DNA of 32,000 bases from Candidatus Saccharimonadota bacterium (GCF_008189285.1 NZ_CP043315.1:210001-242000); one strand, 5' to 3'; shown: positions 11,642-30,802, counted from the stretch's first letter. A program made the numbers and translations. The notes: generated by a model from the sequence alone, not told the origin.

Positions 11642-12441
11642 TTTTATATTTCTATATAGCATTTTCTAAATACTATTTTATTTAAAGTTATTTTAATAAT
11701 TGAATGTTTTTTAAATAAGTTGAGCATTTTAATTTAATAATTAAAAATATTGTTAAGTTTTTTAGCTAAATATCATTTTAGCTTAGATAATTTGTTTATA
11801 AATAAATTATTATGAATTCCATTGGAATGTAAATTAATCCCCCCCTATATTCCTTAAATAGTTTAAAAGCAAGCTAAGTGAGATCAATATATAGTTTTTA
11901 TGTATTAAATAACAATTAATAACGCTGATTTTTATACATTATATAATATTTATTTATACAATTTATAATAAATTGAAATATATAAATTAATTTGTTGAAT
12001 TTTTTTTGCATAGTTAATTTTTTTTCACATTAAGTATGAATTCGCGAATATATAATTGATCTTTTTATGGGCATTTATTAAATTAGCGATATAAGTTCTT
12101 TTCAGTATAAATTGTATTAAATGTTTTTTTGTATTATATGAATTTATATAATATATAATCTATAATTTATTGAATTAGTGTATAAAATAAACTTTTCCAA
12201 TGTTAATAAATTCATTAGTGTTTGCAACTTTCTGTATCCAATACAATGAAATGAGTTGTTTTATTGAATTAGGTCATTTTAACTTTAATAGGATTCATGA
12301 TTGCAAGTTAACAAAATTATACAATAGTTGTAATTTGCATGATAAATAGATAATTTAACAATATATTATTATGTAAAATCAAATTAATACTATATAAAAT
12401 TTGCATGATATTAATTTGTTGATGTTGTAATAGAATAAATT

Positions 12442-12446
12442 GGAGG
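12442..12446 (+). promoter_or_regulatory. Shine-Dalgarno GGAGG for giant-protein paralogue A
   Basis: The context tggaggaatgATGaacaagaaa is nearly identical to the paralogue B context tggaggaataATGaataagaaa. The 4-nt spacing favours ATG 12451 over ATG 12448. Confidence 0.55.
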
Positions 12447-12447
12447 A

Positions 12448-14838
12448 ATGATGAACAAGAAAGTATTGGCTTTTATTGCTGCATTTACTATTAATAAATC
12501 TGTTATAGCTCGTGATATATCTTCTTTGGATAATAGTTATCATAGCCATGCTGTTATTTGTGAAGAATCTGTGTTATCGAATGCATCTGATTGTTTGAAG
12601 AAGTGGGTGTCTGATGCAAATAAGGATTTGTATAAATTCTTAACTTATAACAATCACGTTTACACTGGAGAAAATGATGAAGGGTATAGTTTTTATAGAT
12701 TTCGATGCGATGGCAATGATTTTGATGAAGGTGTAGGGTATAAAGATGGAAAATTGATCCATTTTAAAGGCTTAAATTCAAAAACTGATTTGCATGATGT
12801 GCAAGAAGGTGAAATTCATCATGTTGCTAAGGTTGACATAAGTCAAGTTGAAACAGTTAGAGATTTACTATCTGATTCATCATTAGATTTAGCAAAGAGA
12901 GATTTTTATCTAGATATAGTTAAATTCTTTAAAATTATTCAAGCTCCAGCATCTAATCTTGTATTGATGCTAGATTCTGATTTGAGAGATTTTATGGTAG
13001 ATGAAAGCAACAAAAGTTCAGTTTTGTCAATTATTTGCAATGAGGCTCAATCAGGAAAATCATTTTATGATTCTTTATCTGACATGAAGTGCGATATTAG
13101 AAATGCAAGATTGGTAAAAGAATTTAATGCAGAGCTTGCTCCTAATATGCAAGATGAAAATATTCAAGGAATTTTCCAGAATTTGCTTGACAGTTATATT
13201 GATCCAGCAAGTAACCCTGAAGCTGTATCAAAGGTTTATGAGCATATTAATGAACTACATGCAAAACTTGATAGCCAAGAAATTTCTTTGAGTGAGTTTT
13301 TGAATCATTTTCTTAAAGATCAAAAAGGAAATGCAATTACTTTGACTTCTGTAAAATATGCAATCAGTTTAATGAAAGTTGTTTTGAGCAAGCGTGATTG
13401 TTTAATTAATCCAAGAATGGATTCATTTGATGAAATTAAAATGATTGCTGATCGCATATCTGATGATATTTTAGGTGAATTTGAAAGTGAGTATTTATCT
13501 GAGATTGTTATTCAATTTGGAAAATTTGTCAAAATATCTGATCATTTCTTTATGCAAGATATTGTAAAGTTTATGATGCCAATTTGGTTTAGAAGCAGCG
13601 ATTTTGACAATCTTGCTGATTACAATTATAGCAAATATACAGAATTATTTGAACTTGGACAAGAAGGATCAGCTGCTGCCATTCATCATTTTGTAAGAAG
13701 ATATGTAGGAGAAACAGGAAATACTGATATAAGCGAATTATATAATAATGTATTGATTAAGATTTATCCTAATCTTGCAAATGAAATTCAATTAATGCAT
13801 GATGTCATGTCTGGTGCATTGAATGGATATTTGGATAATCAAAGAATTGTGAATGAGAATCCTGATATGCTTTATCGTGATTTGTATGAAGGTGATAAAG
13901 ATGCATATCATCAGCATTTAGTTGATGATTTTGCTCAGCCAATTGTTAATTTATTTAACGCTGAGCAAATTACTGATTTATCAGATAAATCTTTGGCTTA
14001 TGCTCAAGTGATAAATTTTGCAATTGCTTTTGCAAGTGATCCAGTGGAATTCCTTGCTCATATGCCGTTTTCTCCTATTAGTGATGATAAGGTGCTAGAT
14101 TATTCTGCTATGACTCATAATGAGTTGGGGTATGAAACAATGATCGCATTTAACTCTACTGTGATGCCAAGTGGCGCATTTGGATATAAAGTGGACAATA
14201 GTATAGATAGCTTTAAATATGGATTTAATAATATTCTTGATAAATTGTATGAGTTAGAACAAGCAGAAGGAGGTTTTTTACAATTTGTAGAAAATACTGT
14301 TCAAGAAACAAGAAGTAAATATAAAGATATTCTTATGCATATAAATGAATCAGGTGAATACATGAATGCTGGGAAGGTTGACATTGCAAGAAAAGCAATA
14401 ATTAATTTTATACGCAATGCAGATTCTCTTTATGTGGAATATGATGATGATATTATATTTAATCAAGAAATAGATATGATGCATGTGATTTATTATATTG
14501 AAAGTGCATTGCGAGGAAATTTTAATAAAGATTCTTTTAGTTCAATATTAAGAGAGCTAAATTGTCATGCATACAATAGATTGCTATATGGAAAATCAGG
14601 AAATGTTTTAATATATTTATGTTCTATACTTGATATTGATGTTGCTTATACAATAGGAAATGAAAGAGAAGAGTTTAAATATTCAGAGCATATTTCTTTT
14701 AAATTGAATGTTGATAAAATGTTTGCAGAATTAAAAGAAAAATTAGAAAAGAAAAACATTGATGTTGATGCAATTTTAGATGAAATGCATGAGTTAATTA
14801 TGAGTACTAATAGCCCAGAATCTGAATTAGACGAATAA
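12448..14838 (+). CDS. giant secreted protein family, paralogue A (shortest, no repeat cassette)
   Basis: 796 aa with signal peptide MNKKVLAFIAAFTINKSVIA. The N-module shared with ORFs 19783..22692 and 24937..28515 includes ASDCLKKW, HVYTG, DLHDVQEGEIHHVAK, DIVKFFK and ICNEAQSGKSFYDSLSDM. The shared C-module includes MMPIWF and INFAIAFASDP. Confidence 0.85.
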   Translation: MMNKKVLAFIAAFTINKSVIARDISSLDNSYHSHAVICEESVLSNASDCLKKWVSDANKDLYKFLTYNNHVYTGENDEGYSFYRFRCDGNDFDEGVGYKDGKLIHFKGLNSKTDLHDVQEGEIHHVAKVDISQVETVRDLLSDSSLDLAKRDFYLDIVKFFKIIQAPASNLVLMLDSDLRDFMVDESNKSSVLSIICNEAQSGKSFYDSLSDMKCDIRNARLVKEFNAELAPNMQDENIQGIFQNLLDSYIDPASNPEAVSKVYEHINELHAKLDSQEISLSEFLNHFLKDQKGNAITLTSVKYAISLMKVVLSKRDCLINPRMDSFDEIKMIADRISDDILGEFESEYLSEIVIQFGKFVKISDHFFMQDIVKFMMPIWFRSSDFDNLADYNYSKYTELFELGQEGSAAAIHHFVRRYVGETGNTDISELYNNVLIKIYPNLANEIQLMHDVMSGALNGYLDNQRIVNENPDMLYRDLYEGDKDAYHQHLVDDFAQPIVNLFNAEQITDLSDKSLAYAQVINFAIAFASDPVEFLAHMPFSPISDDKVLDYSAMTHNELGYETMIAFNSTVMPSGAFGYKVDNSIDSFKYGFNNILDKLYELEQAEGGFLQFVENTVQETRSKYKDILMHINESGEYMNAGKVDIARKAIINFIRNADSLYVEYDDDIIFNQEIDMMHVIYYIESALRGNFNKDSFSSILRELNCHAYNRLLYGKSGNVLIYLCSILDIDVAYTIGNEREEFKYSEHISFKLNVDKMFAELKEKLEKKNIDVDAILDEMHELIMSTNSPESELDE

Positions 14839-14940
14839 ATGACACAAAACCTAAAGCATAAAAATGCAATAATTTGAGTGCTAATAATACAATGTGTTAT
14901 TTTATTTATGATGCATAAAATCTATTTAGAATATATTGTA

Positions 14941-15516
14941 TTATTTAGAACATATAAAATCTGATAAAAGCAATTCATGAGATTTGTATTCTTTGTCTAT
15001 AATTTGAAGATTTCCTTTTTCATCAATATTATTTACATAGAAAACAGTCTCATTTTTTTTATCTTTTTTCCTAATAATTAAATTTTTCATCTCATTTTCA
15101 ATTTGTTTCTTATTAATCATTTTAAGTTTGTTCATGAAAAAATGAATTTGATGACATATCTTAATAATAATATTTTTCTTGCTAATAATAGGCTTGATTT
15201 GTATGTGCAGTATATTCGTTTTATGAGTTTTGCATTTCGCAATTATATTGTTGTCAAAACATATGGTATTTGGCCAATCAAACTGATATCTTTTATCTAT
15301 ATTTTTTAACATACTATGTGTTGCCAATATACCTATAAATAGCAATATATGATTTTCAAGATCATTGATGATAAAATGAATATCAATCATTGTATCGCTT
15401 TGCAAGTCACTATTTTGCATAATAACGCTATAACTTTTTAACTGGTTATTTGATGCGTATTCTATTGGGTTGTCTGACATAATTAATTCAAAACCTAAGG
15501 GTAATTTGGTGTTCAT
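14941..15516 (-). CDS. hypothetical protein, possibly a degenerate biotin--protein ligase (BPL/LplA/LipB fold) remnant
   Basis: 191 aa. FIGILATHSMLKNIDKRYQFDWPNTICFDNNIIAKCKT resembles the BirA segment (GI..A..L......KWPND....K..G). The C-terminal VNNIDEKGNLQIIDKEYKSHELLLSDF resembles the BirA tail (GID..G.L......G.....SGE). The GRGRxGRxW biotin-binding loop is absent. Confidence 0.5.
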   Translation of the reverse strand: MNTKLPLGFELIMSDNPIEYASNNQLKSYSVIMQNSDLQSDTMIDIHFIINDLENHILLFIGILATHSMLKNIDKRYQFDWPNTICFDNNIIAKCKTHKTNILHIQIKPIISKKNIIIKICHQIHFFMNKLKMINKKQIENEMKNLIIRKKDKKNETVFYVNNIDEKGNLQIIDKEYKSHELLLSDFICSK

Positions 15517-15623
15517 ATTTTATTATAATAACACTGTCATTAAAAAGATGATAAAATAATCTTTACTTTACTTTATTTAAAGTTATCTGCTTTATACTAA
15601 AAGTACACTACAAGGAATATGAT

Positions 15624-16067
15624 ATGGAAAGAAAAAATTTTAACGCACTGCTAGAGCATATTATTAGACTGAATAAAGTTGTTTCTAATGCCATGAAAAG
15701 CAATATTAAAGACATAGGCATTAGCGACTTATCTCCAACACAGGCAATTTTATTGCTATTTATATCAGAAAATAAATTTGGATTATTAGAATTGGCAAAT
15801 AATTACTTCTTGCCAAATATACCGTATAACATAAAGCAAATGAAAAAATATGGATATATTAAGCAAGAGAAATCCAAATATGATAAAAGGGCATATGAAA
15901 TCACTTTGTCTAAAAAAGGCGTAGATGCATTAAATAAATTGCAAATGGAAATAGACAAATATTTATTGAATTACGAAAAGTTTTTGACATTGTCTTTTGG
16001 AGATTTGATCTCTTCAATGCAGCAATTAGAAGATTTGTTCAAGCATTCAAAAGCTGTAGATATCTAA
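15624..16067 (+). CDS. MarR-family winged-helix transcriptional regulator
   Basis: 147 aa. LSPTQAILLLFISENKFGLLELANNYFLPNIPYNIKQMKKYGYIKQEKSKYDKRAYEITLSKKG fits the MarR HTH plus wing (DKR...L(T/S)..G). Divergent from 14941..15516. Confidence 0.7.
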   Translation: MERKNFNALLEHIIRLNKVVSNAMKSNIKDIGISDLSPTQAILLLFISENKFGLLELANNYFLPNIPYNIKQMKKYGYIKQEKSKYDKRAYEITLSKKGVDALNKLQMEIDKYLLNYEKFLTLSFGDLISSMQQLEDLFKHSKAVDI

Positions 16068-16135
16068 TTTAATTGATTGAAAATGATCATACTGATTTAA
16101 GAGCGCACTTTATAAATTATTTGACTGATTTATTG

Positions 16136-16765
16136 TTAAAATGATTGATTGTTGCATAAATATAAATATGCTGGAGGGAAATTTCTCAACACATAGCTGC
16201 ATCTTCTAGAGCTTATGCCATGCTTTTTTGCTTTGCTATTGAAGAATGGACTATAAGACATTTGAAGATAATCTGACCCTTCGTCAACAAATTTTTTAAA
16301 TAATCTCATAATCTCATCAGTTTTTTGTTTTCCAAGAGAAACAAATGGAAGAGTAGAAATGAAGCTATTGATTTGAGTTTTAGAGTCAACAAAATTTTCA
16401 ATTTCCAGTATATCAGCATTATATACCGATGCTTTGGGAAATTTCTTTTTCAATATATCGCAAAAATCTTTCTCTATCTCAAAGCATATAATTCTATCTT
16501 CTGGCACTCCAGATTTTATTAATGCTTCAGTTACCGTGCCAGTTCCGGATCCAACCTCAATAATTGGCCCAGGTTTATTTAAATCTATATTTTTTGCAAA
16601 ATGAAATCCTATCCCAGAAGAGCTAGGAATTATAGAGCCCATTCTGAAAGGATTAGAGATCCATTTTTTGAAAAAAACTTTTTTACTCATTCTTAATTCT
16701 ATCAAATACTTTAGATTATTTAAATGCAGCATTAATTCTTTTATTAATTTTGCAATATTAGGCAT
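16136..16765 (-). CDS. class I SAM-dependent methyltransferase, COG3963/PmtA-like (phospholipid N-methyltransferase-like), copy 1
   Basis: Contains WISNPFRMGSIIPSS, the SAM motif I IIEVGSGTGTVTEAL and an acidic motif II CFEIEKDF. By comparison with the upstream paralogue, the real start is probably the internal ATG at 16690 (MSKKVFFKKWISNP). Confidence 0.75.
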   Translation of the reverse strand: MPNIAKLIKELMLHLNNLKYLIELRMSKKVFFKKWISNPFRMGSIIPSSSGIGFHFAKNIDLNKPGPIIEVGSGTGTVTEALIKSGVPEDRIICFEIEKDFCDILKKKFPKASVYNADILEIENFVDSKTQINSFISTLPFVSLGKQKTDEIMRLFKKFVDEGSDYLQMSYSPFFNSKAKKHGISSRRCSYVLRNFPPAYLYLCNNQSF

Positions 16766-16856
16766 TGTACAATATTAGGCATTATAATGTTTTGCCAATA
16801 TTAAGGGTTTTTTATTGAAAGCATTTCATTTTGTATCTTTAAAATTGTATATACTT

Positions 16857-16914
16857 GAATTTCTAAGATTATATAGCTTTATAGTAGAATTTCTAAGATT
16901 ATATAGCTTTATAG
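16857..16914. repeat. 30-bp tandem duplication spanning the 3' end of methyltransferase copy 2
   Basis: gaatttctaagattatatagctttatag occurs at 16857-16884 and 16887-16914. The second copy contains the last codons and the stop codon of ORF 16899..17462. Confidence 0.9.
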
Positions 16915-17462
16915 CAATGTATATATGTCATTGGAATTCCCCAAACAGATTTGCAGAAAACTTTTTTCATTCCATAGCTTGCGAATGGTACAAATGGAGT
17001 GTATGCAACATGTATTATTACTCCATTATTTGATTTGAGCACATCTACACATGAAGTGATGATTTCTTTAGTGATAGTTTTTCCAACAGACATAAATGGT
17101 ATTGATGAAATAATTACTTCAACATTGTTTAAAATGTCATTAGGTATGTATTCATTGAATTTAGATGCGCTTTTGTTATGAATAATTGCTTTAGGAAATT
17201 TCTTTTGCAATATTTTGCATAGTTCTTCATCTATTTCCACACAAATAATTTTATCTGCATTATTGCTGCTTGATATAAATTCAGTTAAAGCTCCAGATCC
17301 ACTTCCTATTTCCAATATAAGGCCGTTATCTGAAACTTTTGGCATGCTGTGTATCATTTTTTTTCCAACTTTTGAAGATAAAGGCAAGAAAGTTCCCATG
17401 CGTTTAGGATTTTTTATCCAACTTTTAGCAAATTTAATATTCTCTTTGTTAAAAATAGCCAT
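16899..17462 (-). CDS. class I SAM-dependent methyltransferase, COG3963/PmtA-like, copy 2
   Basis: 187 aa with WIKNPKRMGTFLPLSS, ILEIGSGSGALTEFI and CVEIDEELC. Co-linear with ORF 16136..16765 (tandem paralogues). Confidence 0.8.
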   Translation of the reverse strand: MAIFNKENIKFAKSWIKNPKRMGTFLPLSSKVGKKMIHSMPKVSDNGLILEIGSGSGALTEFISSSNNADKIICVEIDEELCKILQKKFPKAIIHNKSASKFNEYIPNDILNNVEVIISSIPFMSVGKTITKEIITSCVDVLKSNNGVIIHVAYTPFVPFASYGMKKVFCKSVWGIPMTYIHCYKAI

Positions 17463-17505
17463 AATACAATTTTATCTAATACGGTCAGCAAATACTAGGA
17501 TATAG

Positions 17506-18699
17506 ATGCGATCTAAAGTATTTATTGATCGAAAAATGCATATTGATTGCTCAAAAAACGTATTTATGGTAGATTTTCTTATGTTTTGCTCTGGCCCAAC
17601 AAAAAAATACAAAGAATGGCATCAAAAATCTAAAGATAAATTACTTCAGGATTTAGGAAGATCGCATAGGTCAGAATTATGGATAAAAAGAATAAGTGAA
17701 ATATATAATTTGATTAGAGTTGCATTGAGAATTCCTGAAGATTATAAAATAGGATTTATTAATGGATCAGCAACATCTGCAGTTGATGCATTATTGTTGA
17801 ATTTGCTTGGGAATAGACCATGCAATGTGTTAAAAACAGGAGTATTTAGCAATAGATGGTCTCAAGAAATATTTAATAAAATGAAGATGCCTGGAAAAAC
17901 TATCGAATTTCAAAAAGATGCTATAAATCAAATAAATCAAATAAATCAAATAAATGCAGAATCAGACAAGCTAAATCAATGTCATGATAATAAATATTTG
18001 AATAATTATATAAATCCAAATCCAAATTGCGATTTTGTTTTCACAATGATTGAAACTACAAATGGTTTTAAATGGTTTGATGAAGAGGTTCTGAAAAAAA
18101 TTAATGGACTAAAAATATGCGATGTAACTTCTGCAGTATTTTGTGAAGAAATTGATTGGAATTTGATAGATTGTGGAGCATTTTCATTTCAAAAAGCATT
18201 AGGCGGAGAGGGAGGAATTGGATGCATTGTTGTGAATAGCAAAGCATTAGAAAATCTCAATAAAAAATTTACTGTGCCACGATTCATGGAAATTAATGAC
18301 AATATATTCGATGCAAAATTGAATAACACTCCATCTCTGATAGCATTGAATGATATAGAAATTAATTTGAATATTTTTATGGAAAAAGGAGGTCTGAGCA
18401 ATGCAATAAAGCAGTGCAAAGAAAATCAAATTAACATAATGAAGTCATTAGGTGATTTGTTTTATAAGACATCTGATGCAAATGGAATGCTGTGTGTGGA
18501 TTTTAAAAAACAATTGGGTGAAAAATCTCAATTAATTAAAATTTTGTCTAAAAAGTGTGAAGATTATGGAATATTTGATATATGTGGGCATCCAGAAGAT
18601 GATCCATGTTTTAGATTTTGGGCAGGCCCAACATTAGAGTGGTCAGAAATTCAACCATATATTAATAAATTCATTAATATAGTAGAAAATGATATTTAG
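17506..18699 (+). CDS. serC: class V aminotransferase, phosphoserine aminotransferase (SerC)-like
   Basis: FCSGPTKK, GFINGSATSAVDALLLNLL and FSFQKALGGEGGIGCIVV (Schiff-base Lys context like AGAQKN.GP.G) resemble SerC. The likely start is the internal ATG at 17566 (MVDFLMFCSGP). A 9-bp x3.6 repeat at 17923-17955 encodes INQINQINQIN. Confidence 0.6.
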   Translation: MRSKVFIDRKMHIDCSKNVFMVDFLMFCSGPTKKYKEWHQKSKDKLLQDLGRSHRSELWIKRISEIYNLIRVALRIPEDYKIGFINGSATSAVDALLLNLLGNRPCNVLKTGVFSNRWSQEIFNKMKMPGKTIEFQKDAINQINQINQINAESDKLNQCHDNKYLNNYINPNPNCDFVFTMIETTNGFKWFDEEVLKKINGLKICDVTSAVFCEEIDWNLIDCGAFSFQKALGGEGGIGCIVVNSKALENLNKKFTVPRFMEINDNIFDAKLNNTPSLIALNDIEINLNIFMEKGGLSNAIKQCKENQINIMKSLGDLFYKTSDANGMLCVDFKKQLGEKSQLIKILSKKCEDYGIFDICGHPEDDPCFRFWAGPTLEWSEIQPYINKFINIVENDI

Positions 18700-19570
18700 T
18701 AAAAAATTAGCAATATTATTCGCATATTTTACATTTTTCAATCATGGAAAAGAGAATAAAAATACAGCGAAAATGATAGTTGATATAGTTGATGATCAAA
18801 AATGCTATCAATCTCGAAATAATTTAGATAAATGCATATTAAATTTAACTACCTCTAAGAAGTATAAAATAAATCGTAATGTGTATAAAAGCAAAACAAA
18901 TGAAGTAGAAAGATTTATTAAAAATTATAGAGCCAATGAAAGATATTTGAAAAAATCCAATTTTATAGGAGATGTTTATCCTGAGAGCAAATCGTATGAT
19001 GTTGCATTGTTGGTGTATGATCCAAACCAGGGGATTGAAGTTTTTAGAGAGAAAGTAATCTTTTTAAACAAGCTTTATGAACAAGGATATAGATGGGATG
19101 TTGTAGAAGTTATAGTTAGCTCTAAAAGCAAAAATTATGGCTTTGAGGAAATACAAATATTGCAAAATAAGTATAATTTATTAAATATCAGGAGATATAA
19201 TATAAAGCAAATACATAGAAAGCCATTAAATGATGAAGATATTGCACAAATTATATTAGAGCAAATGGAATTGAATATAGGGGATAAGATAGAATTTTAC
19301 TCTCATGATCAGTCGTTATCTCAGATTATGCGAGATTGGTCAAATGAAAGCCCTAATACAAAAACAATTGACATACAAATCAATCCTATGATCCCTTACT
19401 ATAAAGCTAGATGGAATGAATATTACAATCATAAATCTAATAAGATAGAAGTTGTTGGAAGCGCTGGAATCACAAACAAAAAAGGGCGAGTTGATATGTA
19501 TTATAATGCAGAATTGATATTAAGTAGCATTGGTTTGTATTATAAATATGCGAATAAATACAGATTTTAA
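18689..19570 (+). CDS. hypothetical protein with hydrophobic N-terminus
   Basis: 293-aa ORF whose start overlaps the stop region of the preceding gene by 11 bp (operon-like coupling). N-terminus MIFSKKLAILFAYFTFFNHG. No recognised motif. Confidence 0.6.
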   Translation: MIFSKKLAILFAYFTFFNHGKENKNTAKMIVDIVDDQKCYQSRNNLDKCILNLTTSKKYKINRNVYKSKTNEVERFIKNYRANERYLKKSNFIGDVYPESKSYDVALLVYDPNQGIEVFREKVIFLNKLYEQGYRWDVVEVIVSSKSKNYGFEEIQILQNKYNLLNIRRYNIKQIHRKPLNDEDIAQIILEQMELNIGDKIEFYSHDQSLSQIMRDWSNESPNTKTIDIQINPMIPYYKARWNEYYNHKSNKIEVVGSAGITNKKGRVDMYYNAELILSSIGLYYKYANKYRF

Positions 19571-19773
19571 ATCATTTTTATAGAATTTATTATGCAAATG
19601 TATTTATATATTATAGTTTTCTGCAATTGTTATTGCCTCATGAAATAAATAAATTACAGTTAACTTTTTAAGACAATTTATATGAATTATAAATTGAATT
19701 ACATTAAAGATTATCAGAATTATAATCTAAATTTACAATATATTAATCGCGCAATGTTTCAATAAAACAAAAT

Positions 19774-19778
19774 GGAGG
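19774..19778 (+). promoter_or_regulatory. Shine-Dalgarno GGAGG for giant-protein paralogue B
   Basis: aaatggaggaataATG, with 4-nt spacing to ATG 19783. Same context as paralogue A. Confidence 0.55.
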
Positions 19779-19782
19779 AATA

Positions 19783-22692
19783 ATGAATAAGAAATTGTTA
19801 GCCTTGTTAGCTGTATTTTCTATTAACAAATCTACTTTTACTAATAATGTGTCTGATGTAAGCAATAACCATTTAAGTAAGACATTTATTTGTGATGGAG
19901 TGATCCCTGAAGATGCATCTGATTGTTTTAAATCATGGATTAGTTCAATTAATGATGGAGATCTTATAAGAAAATTAGTTCATGATAAGCATGTATATAC
20001 TGGTAAAAATGAAAAAGGAATTAAAGCATTTAGATTAAGATGCGATGATGGATTTGATGAATTGGTAGGATACAATTTTGACAAACATGAGATTGTTCGT
20101 TTTACTGGAGTAAATACAAGCGCAGACTTGCATGATGTTCAGCTAGGACAAGTTCATCAAGTTTCCAAGGTTTCTTTAGATCAAACAGAAAATATTTCAG
20201 ATTTGATAAAAAATGGATCTATTAGTGATTCATTAAAGCACAAATATGAAGAAGTGCAAAAGTTTTTTAAAGCGCTTCAATTTCCTATTTCTTATATTAT
20301 GCTAGGTAGAGATCCAAGCTTAAGTAGTTATATGCATAGTTTAAATGGAAAGAAATTTTCTATGGAAACAATTTGTGATGAAGTCAAATCTGGAAGGTCA
20401 TTTTCTGATGCTTTCCAGCATATGCATGACACAATTAAGAGCGAAAAAGATAAATCTGAATTACAAGGCAATATTTCTCAATCTGAAGGAGTTCTTAAAG
20501 CTCATCTTTCAAGTGAAAATGATGAATTGCAAGAATTTGTTGGCGAACAAACTGATGCGCTTGCAGGTCAAAATAGAGTCATTAAATCAAAAGTTGGCGA
20601 ATTGCAAGTATTCGTTGGCGAGAAAACTGATGCTCTTGCAAGTCAAAATGGAGAGATTAAAGTAAAAGTTGGCGAATTACAAGAATTAGTTGATCAGCGC
20701 ACTTTAGCTCTTGCAAATCAAAATGAAGAAATTAAAACAAAAATAGAAGATGCAATTAAAGAGGCTGAAGAATTAGCTCAAGGAGTTGAAGAATGCTGTG
20801 TTGAATTAAAAGATAAAGTAGATTTAACTAACAAGCAATTCGAAGTTATTCCTGGTGAATCGCCAGATACTGATGAAAAAACTCAAAGAGAATTGCTTCT
20901 AAAAGCTCTTGCAAACTCTGAAGAAGCAAAAAATAAATCAAGATTTGAGCATTTGACAAATACCAATGAATTAAGAGTTGGGGTGAGCAATGGTTCAATG
21001 TTTGCTTATCATTTTGTGTATCACTTTATTTCAGATAAGTCATCTGTTACTGATGCAGAAGCAATGGTAATTATTAAAGAATTGTTTGCAAATATGAAAT
21101 GTGGTTTTGGAAACCCATCAAATGACTTGTTAGAAGCAGTTAGATTAGTTGCAGAAAAAGTTGATGCAGAATCTTTTGATAGTTTTAAAGAATCTTACAA
21201 AAATATTGTGACCTTTAAAACTGGATTATATCCTTCTTCATCTTTAGAGATTACCAGCACTAACACTGCAATCAATGATTATATGAGATGGATGATGCCT
21301 ATATGGATTAAAAACACTGATGATACAGGAGGGGCGCTTGCTCAAAACGTACAAGATAATTTTGACCAAGAACTGAAAGATTTTATTGTTAGTCAATATA
21401 CTGAGACATCACATGATATGGCATACAATTTAGTTAGATGGTATGCGCATGTTGCTGAAAATACAGGAAGCGCTATAAAATGGGCTCATAATGCTATTAA
21501 AGCTATTAAAAATGTGCATATTCATTACATGTTTCCTATATTTAGTGGATATGTAGATGCAATGATAGATGAAGAAAGAAAGATAAATTCATCATATTCT
21601 TATAGCGACTTCTATAGAACAAAACAAGATAGCATTGTTCTTGATCTATATGGTATTTTAAATGCATTTGATATTGATTTAAACACAGTTAGCTTAGCAG
21701 ATAAATATAAAATTCAAGATGAAATGGTAAAAATTGCAATCACATATGCGAGCGATATTCCTAAATATTTGAGTGAATTATATAGTACAAATCCAATATA
21801 TTCACCTATCAAGAATACTAGCGATGGATATTATGTTGATAGAGGTTGGATTGATTCAAATGGTGATTTGTATGCAGTATTGCGTGCTTTTGTGATTGCG
21901 ATAAATACAGATGACATAGAAGAAATATCAAATAGTTATGAGCAAAGCATATTGTTAAGAAATATTTTGAAGCATGGATTCAATAATACAATGCCTAATG
22001 TTTATAATTTAAGCACTACAGGATCAGGAGAGGATTACTTTATTAAAGGTAGCGGGTCAACAGATGTTCCTAATGCTGAAAAATCTAAATTATGGCATTT
22101 GCTAAATAGAAGCACAGGAGACTCTCATTTTCTAAAATTTGCAGATGACAATAATGCATTTTTCAAGATAACTGATTTCTTTGCATCTATTATGAGAAAT
22201 AGCGATGTTTATGGAGATGAAGATCATGAAATACTTTCTACTATAGATGCTTGGATTGGTGAAAGTGTTGCTCAATATATGAATTCAGGAGATGAAGCAA
22301 GAAATGCAAATTATAGCGCTCACTATATGCATGCAATGAGAGCATTCTTTGAAGAATTGTGTTGCTATACATCAAAAAGACTAAAAGTAGCTAATGGGCA
22401 AGAAAATAAAATAGAACATTATGCGGCTATTTATGCTTTGTTGAATAAGTCATTGAATAATTACAAAGGCTTCACAAACAAAATGCACAATTTCTTTGAA
22501 GAAGAAAATTTGCCAGCAATGAAAGTGTTTGCATTCGAGCATTCTGTTGGTTATATTATGCATAAATGTATTAAGAAAATAATTGATTCTGGTAATGTTG
22601 GCGATGATTCTTTGATAGGCGCAGCAGCTTTGAAAGAATTTTTTGATATGTCTGCATTTTATGCAAAGACAAATTTTAATATTGAACGATAA
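19783..22692 (+). CDS. giant secreted protein family, paralogue B (25-aa x3 repeat cassette)
   Basis: 969 aa with signal peptide MNKKLLALLAVFSINKSTFT. N-module: ASDCFKSW, HVYTG, DLHDVQLGQVHQVSK, EVQKFFK, ICDEVKSGRSFSDAFQHM. C-module: MMPIWI, VKIAITYASDI. The central coiled-coil insertion is absent from paralogue A. Confidence 0.85.
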   Translation: MNKKLLALLAVFSINKSTFTNNVSDVSNNHLSKTFICDGVIPEDASDCFKSWISSINDGDLIRKLVHDKHVYTGKNEKGIKAFRLRCDDGFDELVGYNFDKHEIVRFTGVNTSADLHDVQLGQVHQVSKVSLDQTENISDLIKNGSISDSLKHKYEEVQKFFKALQFPISYIMLGRDPSLSSYMHSLNGKKFSMETICDEVKSGRSFSDAFQHMHDTIKSEKDKSELQGNISQSEGVLKAHLSSENDELQEFVGEQTDALAGQNRVIKSKVGELQVFVGEKTDALASQNGEIKVKVGELQELVDQRTLALANQNEEIKTKIEDAIKEAEELAQGVEECCVELKDKVDLTNKQFEVIPGESPDTDEKTQRELLLKALANSEEAKNKSRFEHLTNTNELRVGVSNGSMFAYHFVYHFISDKSSVTDAEAMVIIKELFANMKCGFGNPSNDLLEAVRLVAEKVDAESFDSFKESYKNIVTFKTGLYPSSSLEITSTNTAINDYMRWMMPIWIKNTDDTGGALAQNVQDNFDQELKDFIVSQYTETSHDMAYNLVRWYAHVAENTGSAIKWAHNAIKAIKNVHIHYMFPIFSGYVDAMIDEERKINSSYSYSDFYRTKQDSIVLDLYGILNAFDIDLNTVSLADKYKIQDEMVKIAITYASDIPKYLSELYSTNPIYSPIKNTSDGYYVDRGWIDSNGDLYAVLRAFVIAINTDDIEEISNSYEQSILLRNILKHGFNNTMPNVYNLSTTGSGEDYFIKGSGSTDVPNAEKSKLWHLLNRSTGDSHFLKFADDNNAFFKITDFFASIMRNSDVYGDEDHEILSTIDAWIGESVAQYMNSGDEARNANYSAHYMHAMRAFFEELCCYTSKRLKVANGQENKIEHYAAIYALLNKSLNNYKGFTNKMHNFFEEENLPAMKVFAFEHSVGYIMHKCIKKIIDSGNVGDDSLIGAAALKEFFDMSAFYAKTNFNIER
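20524..20748. repeat. 75-bp x3 diverged in-frame tandem repeat (ELQxFVGExTDALAxQNxxIKxKVG)
   Basis: Units at 20524-20598, 20599-20673 and 20674-20748 read directly. The first two are very similar and the third is more diverged. Confidence 0.85.
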
Positions 22693-22705
22693 ACATAAAA
22701 TATAT

Positions 22706-24049
22706 TTAGAAAACTAAATATTTGCATATAGATCCATGTCTAATAATGCCTGATTTAGTTAGTTTTATATGATTTTTATCGACTTGAATATAATTATGTT
22801 TGAGCAAATTATCTATTTTTTCTTTGCTTAATATATCAATAATATTAACATTAAAACGATTTTCAAAATCAATCATATTAATCCCATAGACAAGCCTTAA
22901 TCCCATCATAATAAATTCTTGAATTTGAGCTTGGGTGTCGATTTTTTCTAAATTTCTCAATCCATGCTCAAGATTTTGAACGTGTTTAAGCCATTTTTCA
23001 GGAGTTTTTATATTTTCTGTTGAATAGTAATTTTGGATATTAGGATTAGATGAGATTTCATTTATTGAATTTATGCTTTTTTTTATATCATTGCTATTTA
23101 TTACGTTAAAATCACATTGATTATATTCAGACATTTTTTTTGACATATTAGAAAAATCATCATTATTTAGGAATAATCTTCCATGAGCTCCTGGTCCAAT
23201 TCCTACAAATTGCTTGCTAAGCCAATAATTCTTATTATGCAGAGATTCATAGCCTTTCTTAGAGAAATTGGAAATTTCATATCTTTTATATTCATTTTTT
23301 TCACAATTTTTTAGTATTAAATTATAAAAATCTGCAACTTTATCATCATGAGGTAAGAATAGCTCTTTATTTTCTATTTGATGATTAAGCAATGTATTTT
23401 TCTGCAAAGTAAGCTCATATATGGAAATATGCTTTAGATCGATATCTAATAATTTATCAAGAGTATTTTGCAATATATCAAGCGTTTGAGTTGGAAGCCC
23501 ATACATAATATCTGCAGAAACATTGTCAAAAATATCTAAGCTTTGCTTTATAAAATTCAGAGCCTCTTCTGCGTTATGAGTTCTATTAAGTAGCTTAAGT
23601 ATGTCATTATCTAAAGATTGAACTCCAAACGAAATACGATTTATTCCAGCATTTCTGAAATCTTGCAGTGAATATGATTCAAGAGAAGAAGGGTTAGTTT
23701 CAAGTGTAATTTCAATTTCTTCGTTTGAATTGCTCAACCACTCATTTGAACCATTTGATGATGAGCATTTCCATAACTTCTTTGCTTCATTGATAATTTT
23801 ATTTATATTGCTTGGCTTCATCAGAGAAGGGGTCCCACCTCCAAAAAATATAGATTCCATTTCATATGGAGCATATTGAGACCAATAATGCATTTCTTTT
23901 AGCAATGCATTAATCCATACTTCTTCATCTATAGAATCTCTGACATGGCTGTTTAAATCGCAATATGAGCATTTTTTCCTACAAAATGGCCAATGTATAT
24001 ACAAAGAAAATAACTTTTCTTTTTTATTGGGTTGATTGCAATAATTCAT
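22706..24049 (-). CDS. hemW: radical SAM family heme chaperone HemW (oxygen-independent coproporphyrinogen-III oxidase-like)
   Basis: 447 aa with the radical SAM cluster motif LYIHWPFCRKKCSYCDLNS (CxxxCxxC) and FFGGGTPS. The C-terminal part is HemN_C-like. It is longer than is usual for this family because of Asn/Ser-rich low-complexity insertions. Confidence 0.8.
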   Translation of the reverse strand: MNYCNQPNKKEKLFSLYIHWPFCRKKCSYCDLNSHVRDSIDEEVWINALLKEMHYWSQYAPYEMESIFFGGGTPSLMKPSNINKIINEAKKLWKCSSSNGSNEWLSNSNEEIEITLETNPSSLESYSLQDFRNAGINRISFGVQSLDNDILKLLNRTHNAEEALNFIKQSLDIFDNVSADIMYGLPTQTLDILQNTLDKLLDIDLKHISIYELTLQKNTLLNHQIENKELFLPHDDKVADFYNLILKNCEKNEYKRYEISNFSKKGYESLHNKNYWLSKQFVGIGPGAHGRLFLNNDDFSNMSKKMSEYNQCDFNVINSNDIKKSINSINEISSNPNIQNYYSTENIKTPEKWLKHVQNLEHGLRNLEKIDTQAQIQEFIMMGLRLVYGINMIDFENRFNVNIIDILSKEKIDNLLKHNYIQVDKNHIKLTKSGIIRHGSICKYLVF

Positions 24050-24203
24050 ATTATATTAATTTAACATACTTATTGAGTTTAGATTGCATTGTATGCATTC
24101 ATATTTAGAGTTTATGCTTTATCAATATTTATAAATGCAAATCATCGCATATTCTAGCTTACAATTAATAGAAAATAAATTAATTTTGTAATCTAGTATA
24201 GTT

Positions 24204-24859
24204 ATGACACAGTGCAGTATGAATATAAGTAAATTATTGCTATCAGATATACTTATGCAATCTATGGTTACAGCACCAGATGAAGTAATGATTGATATGA
24301 TGAAGGAAGATATAGAAGTATATAAAAAAGTTAGAGAAGAGAATGATACAAATCATCAAGCTATTATATTTAATCAAAAAGCATCCTTCCATTTATGTTC
24401 TGCGCAAACAAAAAACAAGTTGCAGTAGAAACAAAAGAAAGTTTGAAGGATTTGAAAAAGCTTGATTTGCGTAATGCGTTCATCACTTCAATTGAACCAG
24501 GAATGTTTGAAGGATTATCAACTGAGCCAGGAATGTTTGAAGGATTATCAACTGAACCAGGAATGTTTGAAGGATTATCAACTGAACCAGGAATGTTTGA
24601 AGGATTAAATAGTTTGACATATATTGATCTATCAGATAATAAAATCACTTCGATTGAATTAGAAGCATTTGTGGGATTAAGCAATTTGGGCACGCTTGTT
24701 CTATCACTCAATTACTTCACTTCACTTGAACCAGAAGCATTTGCAGGATTAGGTGGTGCGCAAACAATTTATTTTCAAGATAATCCACTAGATGATAAAT
24801 CTAAAGATTGTTTAGAAAGACTAAGAAGAATATTTCCTTATATAAATACTTATTGCTAA
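24204..24859 (+). pseudogene. leucine-rich-repeat protein (LRR-1) with a frame break in an A5 run; short paralogue of ORF 30803..31990
   Basis: ORF 24204..24428 (MQSMVTAPDEVMIDMMKEDIEVYKKVREENDTNHQAIIFNQK) and ORF 24395..24859 together align co-linearly with LRR-2. In the second frame, upstream of its Met, the sequence reads SILPFMFCANKKQVAVETKE. LRR-2 has KAIALNRRHIMPFMFYISRKQVEVETKD. The frames join at aaaaa 24376-24380. Confidence 0.7.
24494..24607. repeat. 30-bp tandem repeat x3.8 (gaaccaggaatgtttgaaggattatcaact, EPGMFEGLST)
   Basis: Units at 24494-24523, 24524-24553 (one a>g change) and 24554-24583, plus a partial unit to about 24607. In-frame within LRR-1. Confidence 0.95.
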
Positions 24860-24936
24860 ATTTTTCTTATAAATTGTTTATCTTAAAAGATTAATATGCT
24901 TAGATATATCATAAAGTATACTCTTATATTGCATTC

Positions 24937-27900
24937 TTATATTATAGGAGCTATCCATTCGCTTATATCGATTTCATCTCTTCCATACTCTTGATTTATA
25001 AATTTTGCAAAAGATTCTAATTCTCCAAATTTTGTCAAAATTCCTAAGGAGCCGCTAATTTCTCTCTTTGGAGAAATAAACTTAAATGCCTCTCTAAGCA
25101 ATTGTTTGTCTGCTATAGAATTAATTAATCCATTAAAAGATGAAACTATATTATTTCCTACATACGATAAGTGAGGGCGTATATGATAAAAATCCAAACT
25201 TGTAATAGAGGCATTTTCAATTGCTCTATCAACTCCTTCTCGATAAAAATTCTTATAGTTTAGTAAAATATTTGACATTTCTACAATAGCGCTAGGGCTA
25301 TTTTGCAATTCTTTGCATCTATTTTTCATGTAACAAAGAATTCTCCCAAAATAACTATCCAAATAATTTGCCGCATTAGCAATTGCATCCTCATAATCAC
25401 TTGCATTGATTAATTCATTATTTAAAGCAATTGCAATTTTCTCAATAGTTCTTCTTAAAAATACATACATATACTCATTGTTTCCATTATCAGAAAATCT
25501 AGTTAAATCAGAATCACACTCGAATCTCCATAAAGTTTGCTTTAAAGCGCTGCTATGATCTTTAAAATTCCTCATTACATTTCTAGAAAATTGATCGACA
25601 GATTCAGACATTTCAATCATTTCATCTACAATATCTTTAAATCCAGGATCAATAGTATAGTAGTAATAATAGGATGAGAATTGATCCACAATAAATTGAT
25701 TAATGTTAAGCAAAATATTAGAAGTTAATTCATTAACATCATATCTATAATTAAATAAATTCAATGCAAAATGCATATTTTGTTTGTTTTGAATTGAAAT
25801 GTAGCTTTCAACACTAGTTTCTCCAGGAATATAAGATTGCGTTGCGTTGTCATATTCTACTATATTTCCACTTATAAAGAAATTTACAATTCTTTGGCGC
25901 CAAGCACTTCCATATGCAGCATATTCATTGATTCTTTGAGCAACTAACTCAGGCAAATTATTATTACTATGACCCTGAATCACCCATTTAAATGCTACAA
26001 GTCCAAGTTCTGCACTTTCATTACTAGTTGCATCGACCAATTTTTCTTCAATATAATCATCAACTTCTGATATGCCAGATAATAACGGAATAATATTGTT
26101 TAAATCATTAACATGCAATTCATCAGCAAATTTTATTATGATTGCTTTTGTAAAATCAATTTGATCAATATCAGTGTCTTTTAGAGGAATAGTGTCATGA
26201 ATTCTCATGCATCGATTTATCATATGATGCATAAGCTCCAACTTATATTTATTATCTAAATTTTCTAAATAAACATTGTTTTGTTGCAAGTTATTCAAAG
26301 GATTTTTATTGTAATTATTCCAAATATATCTATACGAATTATATATTGCATTTACAATGTATTTTGTGTTATTACTTTCAGAAAATGCAGAAACTCTAAT
26401 CAAGGCAGGGGAGGCAATTCTAAAGAAATCACGATAATTCATAGGATTATTTTTATGCCTCTCTCTTATATAATCAATATATTGTGTTGAAAAAGATGCA
26501 AAAGAATCCTTCTCAACATAACTTGCAATATGCATGATTGAATCTAAAACATCATCGTTTAATTGACTTACAGGGCATGAGTATAAATCAAGAATAACAT
26601 TAACAATGCTTAATGCATGCTCTGTATCTATTGAGGAGGATTCAAAATCTGCCAACATGCTTTTTACATACGCTGTAAATGAAAAATCAATACCATTTTT
26701 CATTGCATTTGTGATGTGAGCGTAATCAAATCTCTCTAACTTGCCTATTATTTTCCTAATATCTCCATGAGCTGTATTCAAAGCATGAAAAAAAGCATCA
26801 TCTTTTCTATTATGCGGATTAAGGTGATAATCAATTTGACGATCAATCTCTTCTGCTTCAAGCTTGATTTGATCTGCTACTTTTTTAATATGACATATTG
26901 CTTCTCCTATATTATCATTGCAATCAACTGCAAGTTGAGAGCTAATTTGTGTATTCATTCCATCTACCTTTGAGCTAACTTGCCCAACTGCAGCACTAAC
27001 GTCATCAACTTTCCCATCAATAGCACTTGCTTTCATTTCAATTCTATCAACTTTGATTTCAATTTGATCGGCTGTGTTTCCAACTGTATCTACTTTTGTA
27101 TCAACTTGCCCAACTGCAGCACTAACGTCATCAACTTTCCCATCAATAGCATTCGCTTTAGCAATTATTTGGTTAGATTTTTGTCTAATTTTCCCTACTA
27201 CAGTATCGATGCCATCTACTTTTGTATCAACTTGCCCAACTGCAGCACTAACGTCATCAACTTTCGAATCAACTTGACCAATTGCATTGTTGATACCATC
27301 TATTTTCCCATCAATTACTCTTGATTTATTTAGAAGTTTATTGGTTTTTTGCTTAACCTTGTCTATTTCTACATCAGTTTCAAGTATTTTTTCTTTAATA
27401 GCTTCAGTTTTTGTGTTTAGATTATCTAACAAAGATTGTATATCAGAATCTATTTTTCTTACTTGCCCCTTCAGATATTCAGGATCTGCATTTGAAACTT
27501 CATTCAAAATCCTATTGAAGTCTGCAGGATTATTCGCTCCAAAAAATGATATCAATCCTCTTTGAACATTGCTGAAAAATACATCGCCCGCATCCTGACC
27601 TCGCAAGATATTTAATATTGCTTCTAATATATTTTGCCCATCATCTGTATTTAGCAGCTCTTTTACTTCATTGCAACTTATTTGCAATTGCGTGTATATT
27701 TCTTCATCTTGAATAGCATCAACTCTCAATGCAATGTGTCCAAGATAGCCAAATATAGTCGTCAAATCATCTGTATGAGCGCTTCCTGCTGTATCTTTCA
27801 ATTTATTTACAGTTTGATGCAATGCAGAAATATCAGCATGAACATCCTCTTTTATTGAGTCAGCATGCTTGTTTTGATGGTACAAATCTAATATATCGCT

Positions 27901-28515
27901 TAAAGAATCATGAACAGATTTTCCAACTAATTTAGATTGAGAGCAAATCAGCTCCTTAGTGTATTGTTGATCATGATCTATTGATATATTCGGGTTAGTT
28001 AAGATTTCATATTGTAAGATCAAGCCTCTCATAACTTGAAAAAATGATACTATATCTTTCAAATAATCTTGCTCGTCTGAGTCAATATTATAATCAATTA
28101 AAACTTTTTCCATTACGCTAAGGTCAATTGCATTTTTAGCAACTGCATGAATTTCCCCATCTTGCATATCATGCAAGGCACTATGAGAATCTTTTATTTT
28201 ATACACAGCTCCTTCTAGATAATTATATGTATACATTCCTGTATATTGTTTGTTATTTTTATTTGATGAGATGAGATACCCTATAATTTCATCACTACTT
28301 GTCTCTAGATTTTCTAATCCATTATAAATAGATCCATTTTTATGCCTAATTAAATTGTGACCTAATAATCCTGTAGACCATTTTTTCACATCATCGCTTT
28401 GATTTTCTAACATTCCATCGCATGGCTTAATTTTCTGCAATATTGAATTTTCAACATTTTTAGAGTTAAGCTTTAATAAGCATAAAAGCGTTAAACAATA
28501 TAATTTTTTGTTCAT
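24937..28515 (-). CDS. giant secreted protein family, paralogue C (longest; 42-aa x3 repeat cassette in a long coiled-coil insertion)
   Basis: 1192 aa with signal peptide MNKKLYCLTLLCLLKLNS. N-module: SDDVKKW, ALHDMQDGEIHAVAK, DIVSFFQ, ICSQSKLVGKSVHDSLSDI. The C-module is co-linear with A and B (DSFASF, IIIKFADEL). The central region is rich in xVDxKVD-type repeats. Confidence 0.85.
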   Translation of the reverse strand: MNKKLYCLTLLCLLKLNSKNVENSILQKIKPCDGMLENQSDDVKKWSTGLLGHNLIRHKNGSIYNGLENLETSSDEIIGYLISSNKNNKQYTGMYTYNYLEGAVYKIKDSHSALHDMQDGEIHAVAKNAIDLSVMEKVLIDYNIDSDEQDYLKDIVSFFQVMRGLILQYEILTNPNISIDHDQQYTKELICSQSKLVGKSVHDSLSDILDLYHQNKHADSIKEDVHADISALHQTVNKLKDTAGSAHTDDLTTIFGYLGHIALRVDAIQDEEIYTQLQISCNEVKELLNTDDGQNILEAILNILRGQDAGDVFFSNVQRGLISFFGANNPADFNRILNEVSNADPEYLKGQVRKIDSDIQSLLDNLNTKTEAIKEKILETDVEIDKVKQKTNKLLNKSRVIDGKIDGINNAIGQVDSKVDDVSAAVGQVDTKVDGIDTVVGKIRQKSNQIIAKANAIDGKVDDVSAAVGQVDTKVDTVGNTADQIEIKVDRIEMKASAIDGKVDDVSAAVGQVSSKVDGMNTQISSQLAVDCNDNIGEAICHIKKVADQIKLEAEEIDRQIDYHLNPHNRKDDAFFHALNTAHGDIRKIIGKLERFDYAHITNAMKNGIDFSFTAYVKSMLADFESSSIDTEHALSIVNVILDLYSCPVSQLNDDVLDSIMHIASYVEKDSFASFSTQYIDYIRERHKNNPMNYRDFFRIASPALIRVSAFSESNNTKYIVNAIYNSYRYIWNNYNKNPLNNLQQNNVYLENLDNKYKLELMHHMINRCMRIHDTIPLKDTDIDQIDFTKAIIIKFADELHVNDLNNIIPLLSGISEVDDYIEEKLVDATSNESAELGLVAFKWVIQGHSNNNLPELVAQRINEYAAYGSAWRQRIVNFFISGNIVEYDNATQSYIPGETSVESYISIQNKQNMHFALNLFNYRYDVNELTSNILLNINQFIVDQFSSYYYYYTIDPGFKDIVDEMIEMSESVDQFSRNVMRNFKDHSSALKQTLWRFECDSDLTRFSDNGNNEYMYVFLRRTIEKIAIALNNELINASDYEDAIANAANYLDSYFGRILCYMKNRCKELQNSPSAIVEMSNILLNYKNFYREGVDRAIENASITSLDFYHIRPHLSYVGNNIVSSFNGLINSIADKQLLREAFKFISPKREISGSLGILTKFGELESFAKFINQEYGRDEIDISEWIAPII
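26977..27265. repeat. 126-bp-period in-frame repeat x3 with an identical 37-nt core
   Basis: aacttgcccaactgcagcactaacgtcatcaactttc occurs at 26977-27013, 27103-27139 and 27229-27265. On the minus strand it encodes KVDDVSAAVGQV. Confidence 0.9.
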
Positions 28516-30733: not shown

Positions 30734-30802
30734 ACTTTTGTTAAATAAAAATAAGCATGCTATAATACAAGATGAATACAAACAAACTATTATTATCAGT
30801 TT

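Follow-up and report, generated by a model that had tools for sequence, protein, structure and literature searches.

A clade-restricted family of large, putatively Sec-exported proteins with mosaic paralogues in Candidatus Cytomitobacter, endosymbionts of diplonemid protists

Introduction

The TRPs of Ehrlichia (Anaplasmataceae) leave the cell by type I secretion, carry no Sec signal and are dominated by their repeats. We take them to be acidic, repeat-bearing, lineage-specific and fast-evolving candidates for host interaction, traits that they would share with the proteins described here. According to titles cited in PMC11909080, two periplasmic proteins of Holospora obtusa, of 89 kDa and 63 kDa (Iwatani 2005; Abamo 2008; Fujishima 2023), are moved or secreted outside the bacterium in infection. 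The present work concerns three genes, A, B and C, which encode a family of large proteins with signal-peptide-like N-termini. The genes lie in a 32,000-nucleotide stretch of the chromosome of Candidatus Cytomitobacter indipagum (NZ_CP043315.1:210001-242000), analysed at its full length and referred to below as the window.

C. indipagum is an endosymbiont of a marine diplonemid protist and has a genome of 628 kb; the Cytomitobacter clade consists of Holosporales-like symbionts of such protists, with ~620 kb per genome. The relevant passages of the paper describing these genomes (10.1101/719211) place them in the 605-632 kb class and record the presence of Sec, a reduced type II secretion system/type IV pilus (T2SS/T4P) and a type VI secretion system (T6SS). 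Hypothetical genes make up 22-50% of these genomes in the same passages, which attribute 106 signal-peptide proteins to C. indipagum; the A/B/C family is not mentioned in the passages searched. Two symbionts of D. japonicum, C. primus and Nesciobacter abundans, live in close association with the mitochondrion of the host or are engulfed by it; earlier records for symbionts of this host include vesicles of ~25-50 nm (PMC13462478).

Results

A first-pass annotation of the window had placed three open reading frames (ORFs) at 12448..14838 (+), 19783..22692 (+) and 24937..28515 (-) and proposed that they encode an undescribed paralogous family of exported proteins. The coordinates proved exact, the GenBank start of A being the second methionine, at 12451, which gives a protein of 795 amino acids (aa). 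Protein A is an exact match to FZC35_00920 (QEK37943.1), B (FZC35_00955) and C (FZC35_00975) each form a singleton cluster in a collection of ~15 billion proteins, and the annotation of all three is 'hypothetical protein'. At 29% GC, roughly the value of the window, open frames with 795-1192 codons would arise by chance with a probability of 1e-29 to 1e-44. Such lengths lie beyond chance and, together with the syntenic orthologues in C. primus, identify A, B and C as real genes. All the sequence motifs quoted in the first-pass annotation were found in the three proteins.

The three proteins form a true paralogous family, as the similarity of their N-terminal module (N-module) lay far above chance in BLASTP for all three pairs. 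A and B were 38% identical over 233 aa (E=3e-48) and A and C 29% identical over 187 aa (E=5e-11), with E=3e-7 for B and C. The module is the constant part of the family, as had been supposed, although its size is ~190 aa and not ~210 aa.

The distribution of the family was surveyed with an exhaustive HMMER search of 1.84 billion representative proteins, using a profile of A, B and C from which the regions between the modules (cassettes) had been deleted. The only matches were the three queries and two proteins of C. primus, P0005 (833 aa, QEK38566.1) and P0006 (1246 aa, QEK38561.1). P0005 adjoins HemN, which corresponds to the slot of B, and is roughly equidistant from A and B. P0006 is divergent from the AMP nucleosidase gene, which corresponds to the slot of C, and aligns with C over the full length (26% identity, E=4e-94). 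With AMP nucleosidase as bait, syntenic loci were obtained from four further reduced genomes. Two of these, the ~620-kb circular genomes ERZ25333217 (locus L003) and ERZ25333236 (locus L004) from the European Nucleotide Archive (ENA), carried two more members each in the B slot; the AMP nucleosidase of the window is 63% and 61% identical to theirs, compared with 52% to that of Nesciobacter. No member was present in the ~21-kb loci viewed in Nesciobacter abundans and in the 558-kb metagenome-assembled genome CP060235.1.

The census comprises nine members from four Cytomitobacter-clade genomes (six beyond A, B and C), two of the ENA members being known from partial sequence. It is a lower bound, because the exhaustive search missed the member P0128, which scored 56.7 bits with the same profile, and another member, P0127, was undetectable to it in a local test. 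A word-indexed protein search, run with A and with a three-sequence profile, returned A alone though B and C were in the collection, and was treated as uninformative. DNA-pattern scans gave C. primus only among genome contigs and nothing among metagenome contigs. Two subtypes can be distinguished, a short one (A, B, P0005 and the four ENA proteins) and a long one (C and P0006), with the signal peptide and the ~190-aa N-module common to both.

Several other exported proteins encoded nearby were tested and are not members: w522 and w293 of the window and p392a and p480 of C. primus. In N. abundans, the slot that C and P0006 occupy encodes, in matching orientation and likewise divergent from AMP nucleosidase, a protein of 1386 aa (QEK39125.1; L006 5516-9676, -), whose features are a signal peptide, a coiled coil and a Ser/Pro-rich region. 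Its comparison with the family gave no convincing similarity (best z-score 3.5 of 14 comparisons), and it may be an orthologue that has diverged past recognition or a replacement that is not homologous.

Residue conservation was counted over seven distinct N-modules (those of A, B, C, P0005, P0006, L003 and L004) and is given in A numbering. The sole invariant residues were C37, W52, G73, F159, F160 and C196, with no His, Asp or Ser among them. The invariant His-Asp of the first-pass annotation was thus lost once relatives were included, H115/D116 being replaced in P0005 (LADVQ), P0006 (LNTIQ) and, by other residues, L003 and L004. C48 and C86 were both present in A, B, P0005, P0006 and L004 and both missing in C and L003. 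This distribution suggests two independent joint losses, the pattern expected of a disulfide pair, and since the two cysteines are kept or lost together, they suggest disulfides rather than a catalytic nucleophile.

The AlphaFold2 model of the N-module of A alone (predicted local distance difference test, pLDDT, 77; predicted template modelling score, pTM, 0.71) consists of a small beta-sheet packed on long helices. The most conserved motif, LHDVQxGEIHxVAK, lies in a low-confidence loop of this model. Foldseek comparison with the PDB gave a best E=0.9 and template modelling (TM) scores <=0.21, hydrolases and proteases not being among the matches, and the best value against BFVD was E=0.06. Judging by this model, the N-module is possibly a new fold.

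The C-terminal module (C-module) behaved differently from the proposal of a ~550-aa unit common to all three proteins. Between A and B, the similarity was 24% identity over 404 aa (E=1e-17), whereas the A/B and C types were significantly alike only over the first ~80-90 aa (an 88-aa stretch between B and C with BLASTP E=2e-4; hhalign of short versus long type, E=8e-5, probability 61%). A HMMER profile of the C-module of either type did not detect the other type above shuffled controls. The remainder showed weak colinear similarity, with Smith-Waterman z-scores of 6.5 for P0005-C over ~390 aa, 4.4 for B-P0006 and values under 3 in the remaining pairs, and an anchor motif, L-(C)-C-Y/F-x-K, was conserved ~90-150 residues before the C-terminus. 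The short- and long-type C-modules are, on these alignments, probably homologous throughout yet almost randomised. The earlier pairing of IIIKFADEL in C with INFAIAFASDP in A was not reproduced by the alignments. An architecture of conserved N-module, hypervariable cassette and conserved C-module has to be abandoned as well, since the C-module is the fastest-diverging part. It is predicted by AlphaFold2 to be all-alpha, and the Foldseek search with the full-length model of A returned merely generic helical-repeat matches (E>=0.076, TM<=0.17).

The length differences between the proteins fall between the modules, as proposed, where A has ~40 aa, B 160 aa and C 370 aa. Tandem DNA repeats were identified in B (75 bp x2.9, 20524-20742) and C (126 bp x2.5, 26960-27272) with Tandem Repeats Finder (TRF), so the repeat cassettes suggested earlier are real in both; their description as coiled coil applies to C and not to B. 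The power of the 3.5-residue hydrophobic periodicity was 3.46 in C and 2.25 in P0006 compared with 0.24 in shuffles, 0/500 of which reached the observed value, and the C cassette gave sub-threshold matches to coiled-coil families in Pfam/NCBIfam. In the 25-aa repeats of B the heptad power was 0.07 versus 0.24 in shuffles, so no periodicity is present; the B cassette may be helical, a coiled coil not being demonstrable. The cassettes of C and P0006 are 27% identical (E=3e-22). This conservation in the C. primus orthologue indicates that the long-type cassette is ancestral and not simply hypervariable, while the 25-aa x3 insert of B is lineage-specific, being absent in A and P0005.

The assignment of the family as undescribed was upheld by searches of Pfam and NCBIfam, by a sequence search of the PDB and by Foldseek against the PDB and BFVD, all without a match. 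Pfam and NCBIfam gave nothing for A and B and, for C, only the sub-threshold coiled-coil noise in the cassette; nothing was found in them for the later-found relatives, and profile searches against all PDB sequences were empty. As far as these searches reach, the family is an orphan, restricted so far to the Cytomitobacter clade.

The family has diverged fast. In the comparison of C. indipagum with C. primus, neighbouring housekeeping proteins are 59-86% and conserved hypothetical proteins 39-52% identical, whereas family orthologues are 26-32% identical, with an overall range of 22-39% for orthologues and paralogues. The orthologous N-modules of C and P0006 (32% identity) are no closer than the paralogous ones of P0005 and P0006 (35%), which places the family at its structural floor. 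The ratio of nonsynonymous to synonymous substitution rates (dN/dS) was not estimable, 26-32% amino-acid identity being saturated.

The paralogues of the two sister genomes have a strikingly mosaic structure. In ERZ25333217, the two members are in direct orientation (L003 1-838 and 4447-5284) and share 99.3% nucleotide identity over at least 838 bp, a stretch that reaches the edge of the readable locus and in which 5/278 codons differ. The identity breaks off abruptly inside the first segment of the C-module; beyond it, over ~410 aa, the two proteins are barely related (z=5.3). In ERZ25333236, the pair is inverted (L004 17176-18277 and 19329-20430) and 97% identical over 1105 bp that take in 53 bp upstream; the first 280 codons are identical, after which the C-halves diverge. 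The pattern is one of 5' halves evolving in concert, through gene conversion or recombination, next to 3' halves that have diversified, and the sister-genome pairs testify to recent gene conversion in genomes that are highly reduced.

The constant/variable pattern is weak in the window itself, where the N-modules of A and B are 39% and the C-modules 26% identical. A blastn self-comparison revealed an old duplication tract, with 65% nucleotide identity between A and B, which begins ~50 nt upstream of the ATG. The shared initiation context GGAGGAAT(R)ATG reported for A and B is real and corresponds to an ordinary GGAGG Shine-Dalgarno site within this tract.

The N-termini of the family are signal-peptide-like on inspection, in agreement with the first-pass annotation. 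An MNKK n-region is followed by an h-region of 10-12 hydrophobic residues and by small residues at -3/-1. The residues at -3 to -1 are V-I-A in A, S-F-A in P0005, V-S-A in P0006 and L-N-S in C, those of B (T-F-T) being weaker. No hydrophobic segments were found beyond the signal peptide, and the lipobox [LVI][ASTVI][GAS]C was absent in all five N-termini, the Cys residues of the h-region of C following Y or L. The earlier statement that these proteins are not autotransporters also stands: there was no Pfam autotransporter match, no C-terminal beta-barrel was predicted, the C-terminal region is predicted to be helical and the C-termini are non-aromatic (...ELDE, ...NIER and ...APII). With isoelectric points (pI) of 4.7-5.1, the proteins are among the most acidic of the window. 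The features of the three genes are collected in Table 1.

Table 1. Coordinates of the three family genes and of their parts in the window.
Feature	Position	Strand	Description and evidence
Gene A	12451..14838	+	FZC35_00920, QEK37943.1; 795 aa; short type; GenBank match
A signal peptide (predicted Sec)	12451..12510	+	MNKK, 10-residue hydrophobic core, V-I-A before cut; read from sequence
A N-module	12511..13095	+	~195 aa; predicted alpha/beta (AlphaFold2); C37, C48, C86, C196; BLASTP to B
A linker	13096..13206	+	~37 aa, where B and C have cassettes; alignments
A C-module	13207..14835	+	543 aa; predicted all-alpha; conserved C317 in opening segment; LNCHAYNRL anchor; BLASTP to B, AlphaFold2
Duplication/conversion tract (old), A vs B	12397..12834 vs 19729-20172	+	blastn self-comparison, upstream alignment
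Gene B	19783..22692	+	FZC35_00955, QEK37950.1; 969 aa; short type with inserted repeat cassette
B N-module	19846..20433	+	alignments
B cassette	20434..20910	+	lineage-specific; 25-aa x3 tandem repeats; TRF; absent from A and P0005
B C-module	20911..22689	+	593 aa; predicted all-alpha; alignments
Gene C	24937..28515	-	FZC35_00975, QEK37954.1; 1192 aa; long type; positional orthologue of P0006 (QEK38561.1)
C N-module	27880..28461	-	lacks the C48/C86 pair; alignments
C cassette	26764..27879	-	~370 aa; helical/coiled-coil; 42-aa x2.5 repeats; TRF, heptad power, P0006 conservation
C C-module	24940..26763	-	608 aa; homology to A/B type demonstrable only in first ~80-90 aa; BLASTP, hhalign

The surroundings of the family genes were also inspected. 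Directly upstream of A lies FZC35_00915 (w522, 10073-11641, +), which encodes an acidic protein of 522 aa with a signal peptide and 75-bp repeats and has no detectable relatives. Its slot in C. primus (L001 2429-3607 and 3726-5168) is occupied by two signal-peptide paralogues of 392 and 480 aa with 44% mutual identity, unrelated to FZC35_00915 or A; the differing occupants after dUTPase indicate that this slot turns over exported genes. The 806-bp intergenic gap between FZC35_00915 and A (11642-12447) is unusually long for a 628-kb genome and contained no ORF, tRNA or Rfam match. Rfam and tRNA scans of the whole window found no RNA genes, and a scan for promoters and terminators gave no enrichment relative to shuffles.

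A 939-aa ORF at 1959-4778 (-) encodes a protein of pI 4.5 with a signal peptide, an N-domain of ~260 aa and ~100 pentapeptide repeats (EAKEP, 15 bp x100). Its Pfam 'HC2' match is probably low-complexity noise, and the exact sequence is absent from the 15-billion-protein collection. Between HemN and C, at 24219-24859 (+), lies a truncated, stop-riddled leucine-rich repeat (LRR) paralogue with 74% nucleotide identity to 30772-30987, which holds a 30-bp x4 repeat encoding TEPGMFEGLS. The intact LRR protein (30803-31990, +) has 395 aa and no obvious signal peptide. The region from TrpRS to Rpe (7864-30733, compared with L001) is rearranged between C. indipagum and C. primus: an inversion affects the block made up of two methyltransferase genes, MarR and w191, the w397/w293 pair also has the opposite orientation with respect to the family gene, and LysRS is present in C. 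primus only. The rearrangement breakpoints adjoin family members.

Discussion

The first-pass annotation was largely right in what it observed; its module model and its enzymatic guess were not. The reading tentatively preferred here, at somewhat less than an even chance, is that these are envelope or secreted proteins exported via Sec, in which the N-half docks and a helical domain that diversifies serves for binding. Each protein has four parts: a short, putatively cleavable Sec signal peptide; an alpha/beta N-domain of ~190 aa, which one invariant Cys pair and a second, dispensable pair would hold together; a predicted helical spacer that differs in length and is a true coiled coil in the long type; and an acidic C-domain of 450-600 aa, predicted to be all-alpha, that evolves extremely fast. 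The proteins would cross the inner membrane via Sec and then be oxidised in the periplasm. Sec export is proposed from the signal peptide, the lack of any other hydrophobic segment, of a lipobox and of a beta-barrel, the acidity and the paired cysteines, which suit folding under oxidising conditions. Afterwards the proteins may stay envelope-bound or be released, the reduced T2SS/T4P or the outer-membrane vesicles reported for D. japonicum symbionts being plausible routes. T2SS substrates are not known to have a common sequence motif.

The constant N-half may have one docking partner in the bacterium, be it an anchor or a step of export, and for that reason would be kept uniform between paralogues through gene conversion. 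The C-domain would present a diversifying surface that binds a host partner, raised on a coiled-coil stalk in the long type. The host partner could be the mitochondrion or the cytoskeleton, and some other external partner is also possible; as the symbionts lie against or within the host mitochondrion, host-organelle contact is the most attractive target. Taken to its full extent, this would be a self-homogenising constant-dock/variable-hand system of diplonemid endosymbionts, a picture that we consider quite unlikely as a whole. In it, the N-half, stapled by disulfides, would hold the protein at the bacterial surface or the export apparatus, while the C-domains would take hold of host structures, the most attractive being the outer membrane of the mitochondrion that wraps the bacteria; if it were true, the family would be the molecular basis of the association between symbiont and mitochondrion. 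The proteins are good candidates for host interaction in a reduced genome, and the 'host-interaction system' of the first-pass annotation would be a further step from there.

Several points weigh against the preferred reading. The signal peptides were judged by eye, the disulfides are argued from Cys covariation, and the full-length AlphaFold2 model of A is poor (pLDDT 54, pTM 0.40). In the absence of an outer-membrane anchor, a lipobox or a known secretion motif, a step past the periplasm is unsupported. A and B have undergone no recent homogenisation in the window, their nucleotide identity being only 65%. Relaxed constraint in an endosymbiont of small population, rather than diversifying selection, could explain the fast divergence.

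In a rather unlikely alternative, the proteins are exported by Sec but never released, do not touch the host directly and serve as structural components of the periplasm or cell envelope, filling or organising the periplasm or replacing lost envelope components. A signal peptide that is accompanied by no outer-membrane anchor, beta-barrel, lipobox or secretion signal fits such a role, as do a Cys pattern suited to a periplasmic protein and a coiled-coil/helical architecture common among structural proteins, and in Holospora the periplasm is filled with abundant proteins specific to the stage (PMC11909080). However, structural proteins of this kind are usually conserved, whereas the family evolves 2-5x faster than its neighbours and is absent from the sister genus at syntenic sites, and a purely internal scaffold would hardly account for several paralogues whose front is constant and whose back has diversified. 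The same mosaic of constant N- and variable C-halves resembles polymorphic toxin loci and could suggest factors of competition with co-resident bacteria, the N-half serving delivery and the C-half being the payload; effector/immunity interplay of co-occurring symbionts is discussed in a passage of the genome paper (10.1101/719211), and C. primus cohabits with Nesciobacter. We regard this as improbable. No small immunity-like gene follows any member: w191, HemN and the LRR remnant take this place in the window, HemN or w397/w293 lie downstream in the other genomes, and w191 is conserved elsewhere. No toxin domain was found in Pfam, the variable part is a helical domain of 450-600 aa and not a compact toxin, and a Sec signal is not the usual entry to T6SS or contact-dependent inhibition (CDI) delivery. 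As to competitors, one paper gives the C. indipagum of D. aggregatum without a co-resident, while a Holosporales review lists a second symbiont.

The idea that the N-module is a thiol-dependent hydrolase (Cys/His/Asp) delivered to the host arose from the invariance of C37, H115-D116, H123 and C196, which holds among A, B and C alone. It has become very improbable with the substitution of H115/D116 in P0005, P0006, L003 and L004, the jointly present or absent C48/C86, which suggests structural cysteines, and a model of pTM 0.71 that matches no hydrolase or protease fold, next to the empty sequence searches of the PDB and Pfam. That the ORFs are decaying or functionless, lineage-specific and drifting freely is hardly credible. 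Very fast divergence and the lack of known domains would be in keeping with it, in a genome with 22-50% hypothetical genes, but the frames are intact (chance probability <=1e-29), syntenic orthologues exist in C. primus and further members occupy the B slot of two other genomes, and the core residues, the Cys pairs and the C-terminal anchor motif are conserved. The adjoining LRR paralogue shows, by contrast, what a truly decayed, stop-filled gene looks like.

The three paralogues take up ~9 kb, or ~1.4% of the chromosome, which strongly hints at an important function specific to the symbiosis. Cytomitobacter and its relatives, with genomes of ~620 kb, provide no obvious nutrition and are pressed on or engulfed by the single mitochondrion of the host, and the family offers concrete candidates for how such symbionts keep their place and exploit the host. 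With it comes a clear natural case in which 5' halves are homogenised and 3' halves diversified, in a type of genome usually assumed to be recombination-poor. Should the proteins be merely periplasmic filler, the finding would be of local interest.

Among described systems, the 89-kDa and 63-kDa proteins of Holospora are the nearest functional analogues, likewise being large periplasmic proteins in related protist endosymbionts. We take them to be lineage-specific, and no protein of Holospora was among the matches of the 1.84-billion-protein profile search. Unlike Holospora, Cytomitobacter has no known infectious form or invasion tip; the likeness lies in lifestyle and topology and not in homology. 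Polymorphic toxins (CdiA-CT, Rhs, MAFB) share with the family a constant N-terminal part, a sharply diverging C-terminal part and breakpoints at the junction, but differ from it by an adjacent immunity gene, toxin and trafficking domains and dedicated delivery domains, where the family has a Sec signal. A similar logic of constant front and variable back is found in the receptor-binding proteins of phages. Classical (Va) and trimeric autotransporter adhesins are also large and carry a signal peptide, and the long type has, like them, a head and a coiled-coil stalk; the family lacks their beta-barrel translocator and terminal aromatic residue, its C-terminal 500 aa being predicted as all-alpha. 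In contrast to the Ehrlichia TRPs, the repeats of the family are a minor, optional insert between folded modules, and no homology was detected. The C-module is predicted to form a long helix stack reminiscent of alpha-solenoids (HEAT/ARM), the top Foldseek matches being importins and the PP2A-A subunit; these were non-significant at the values given above, with a model of pLDDT 54, and repeat periodicity was not demonstrated. None of the compared families has its defining features reproduced in full in the proteins described here. What is new lies at the level of the family and possibly of the fold; the general type, exported paralogues that evolve fast in an intracellular bacterium, is familiar.

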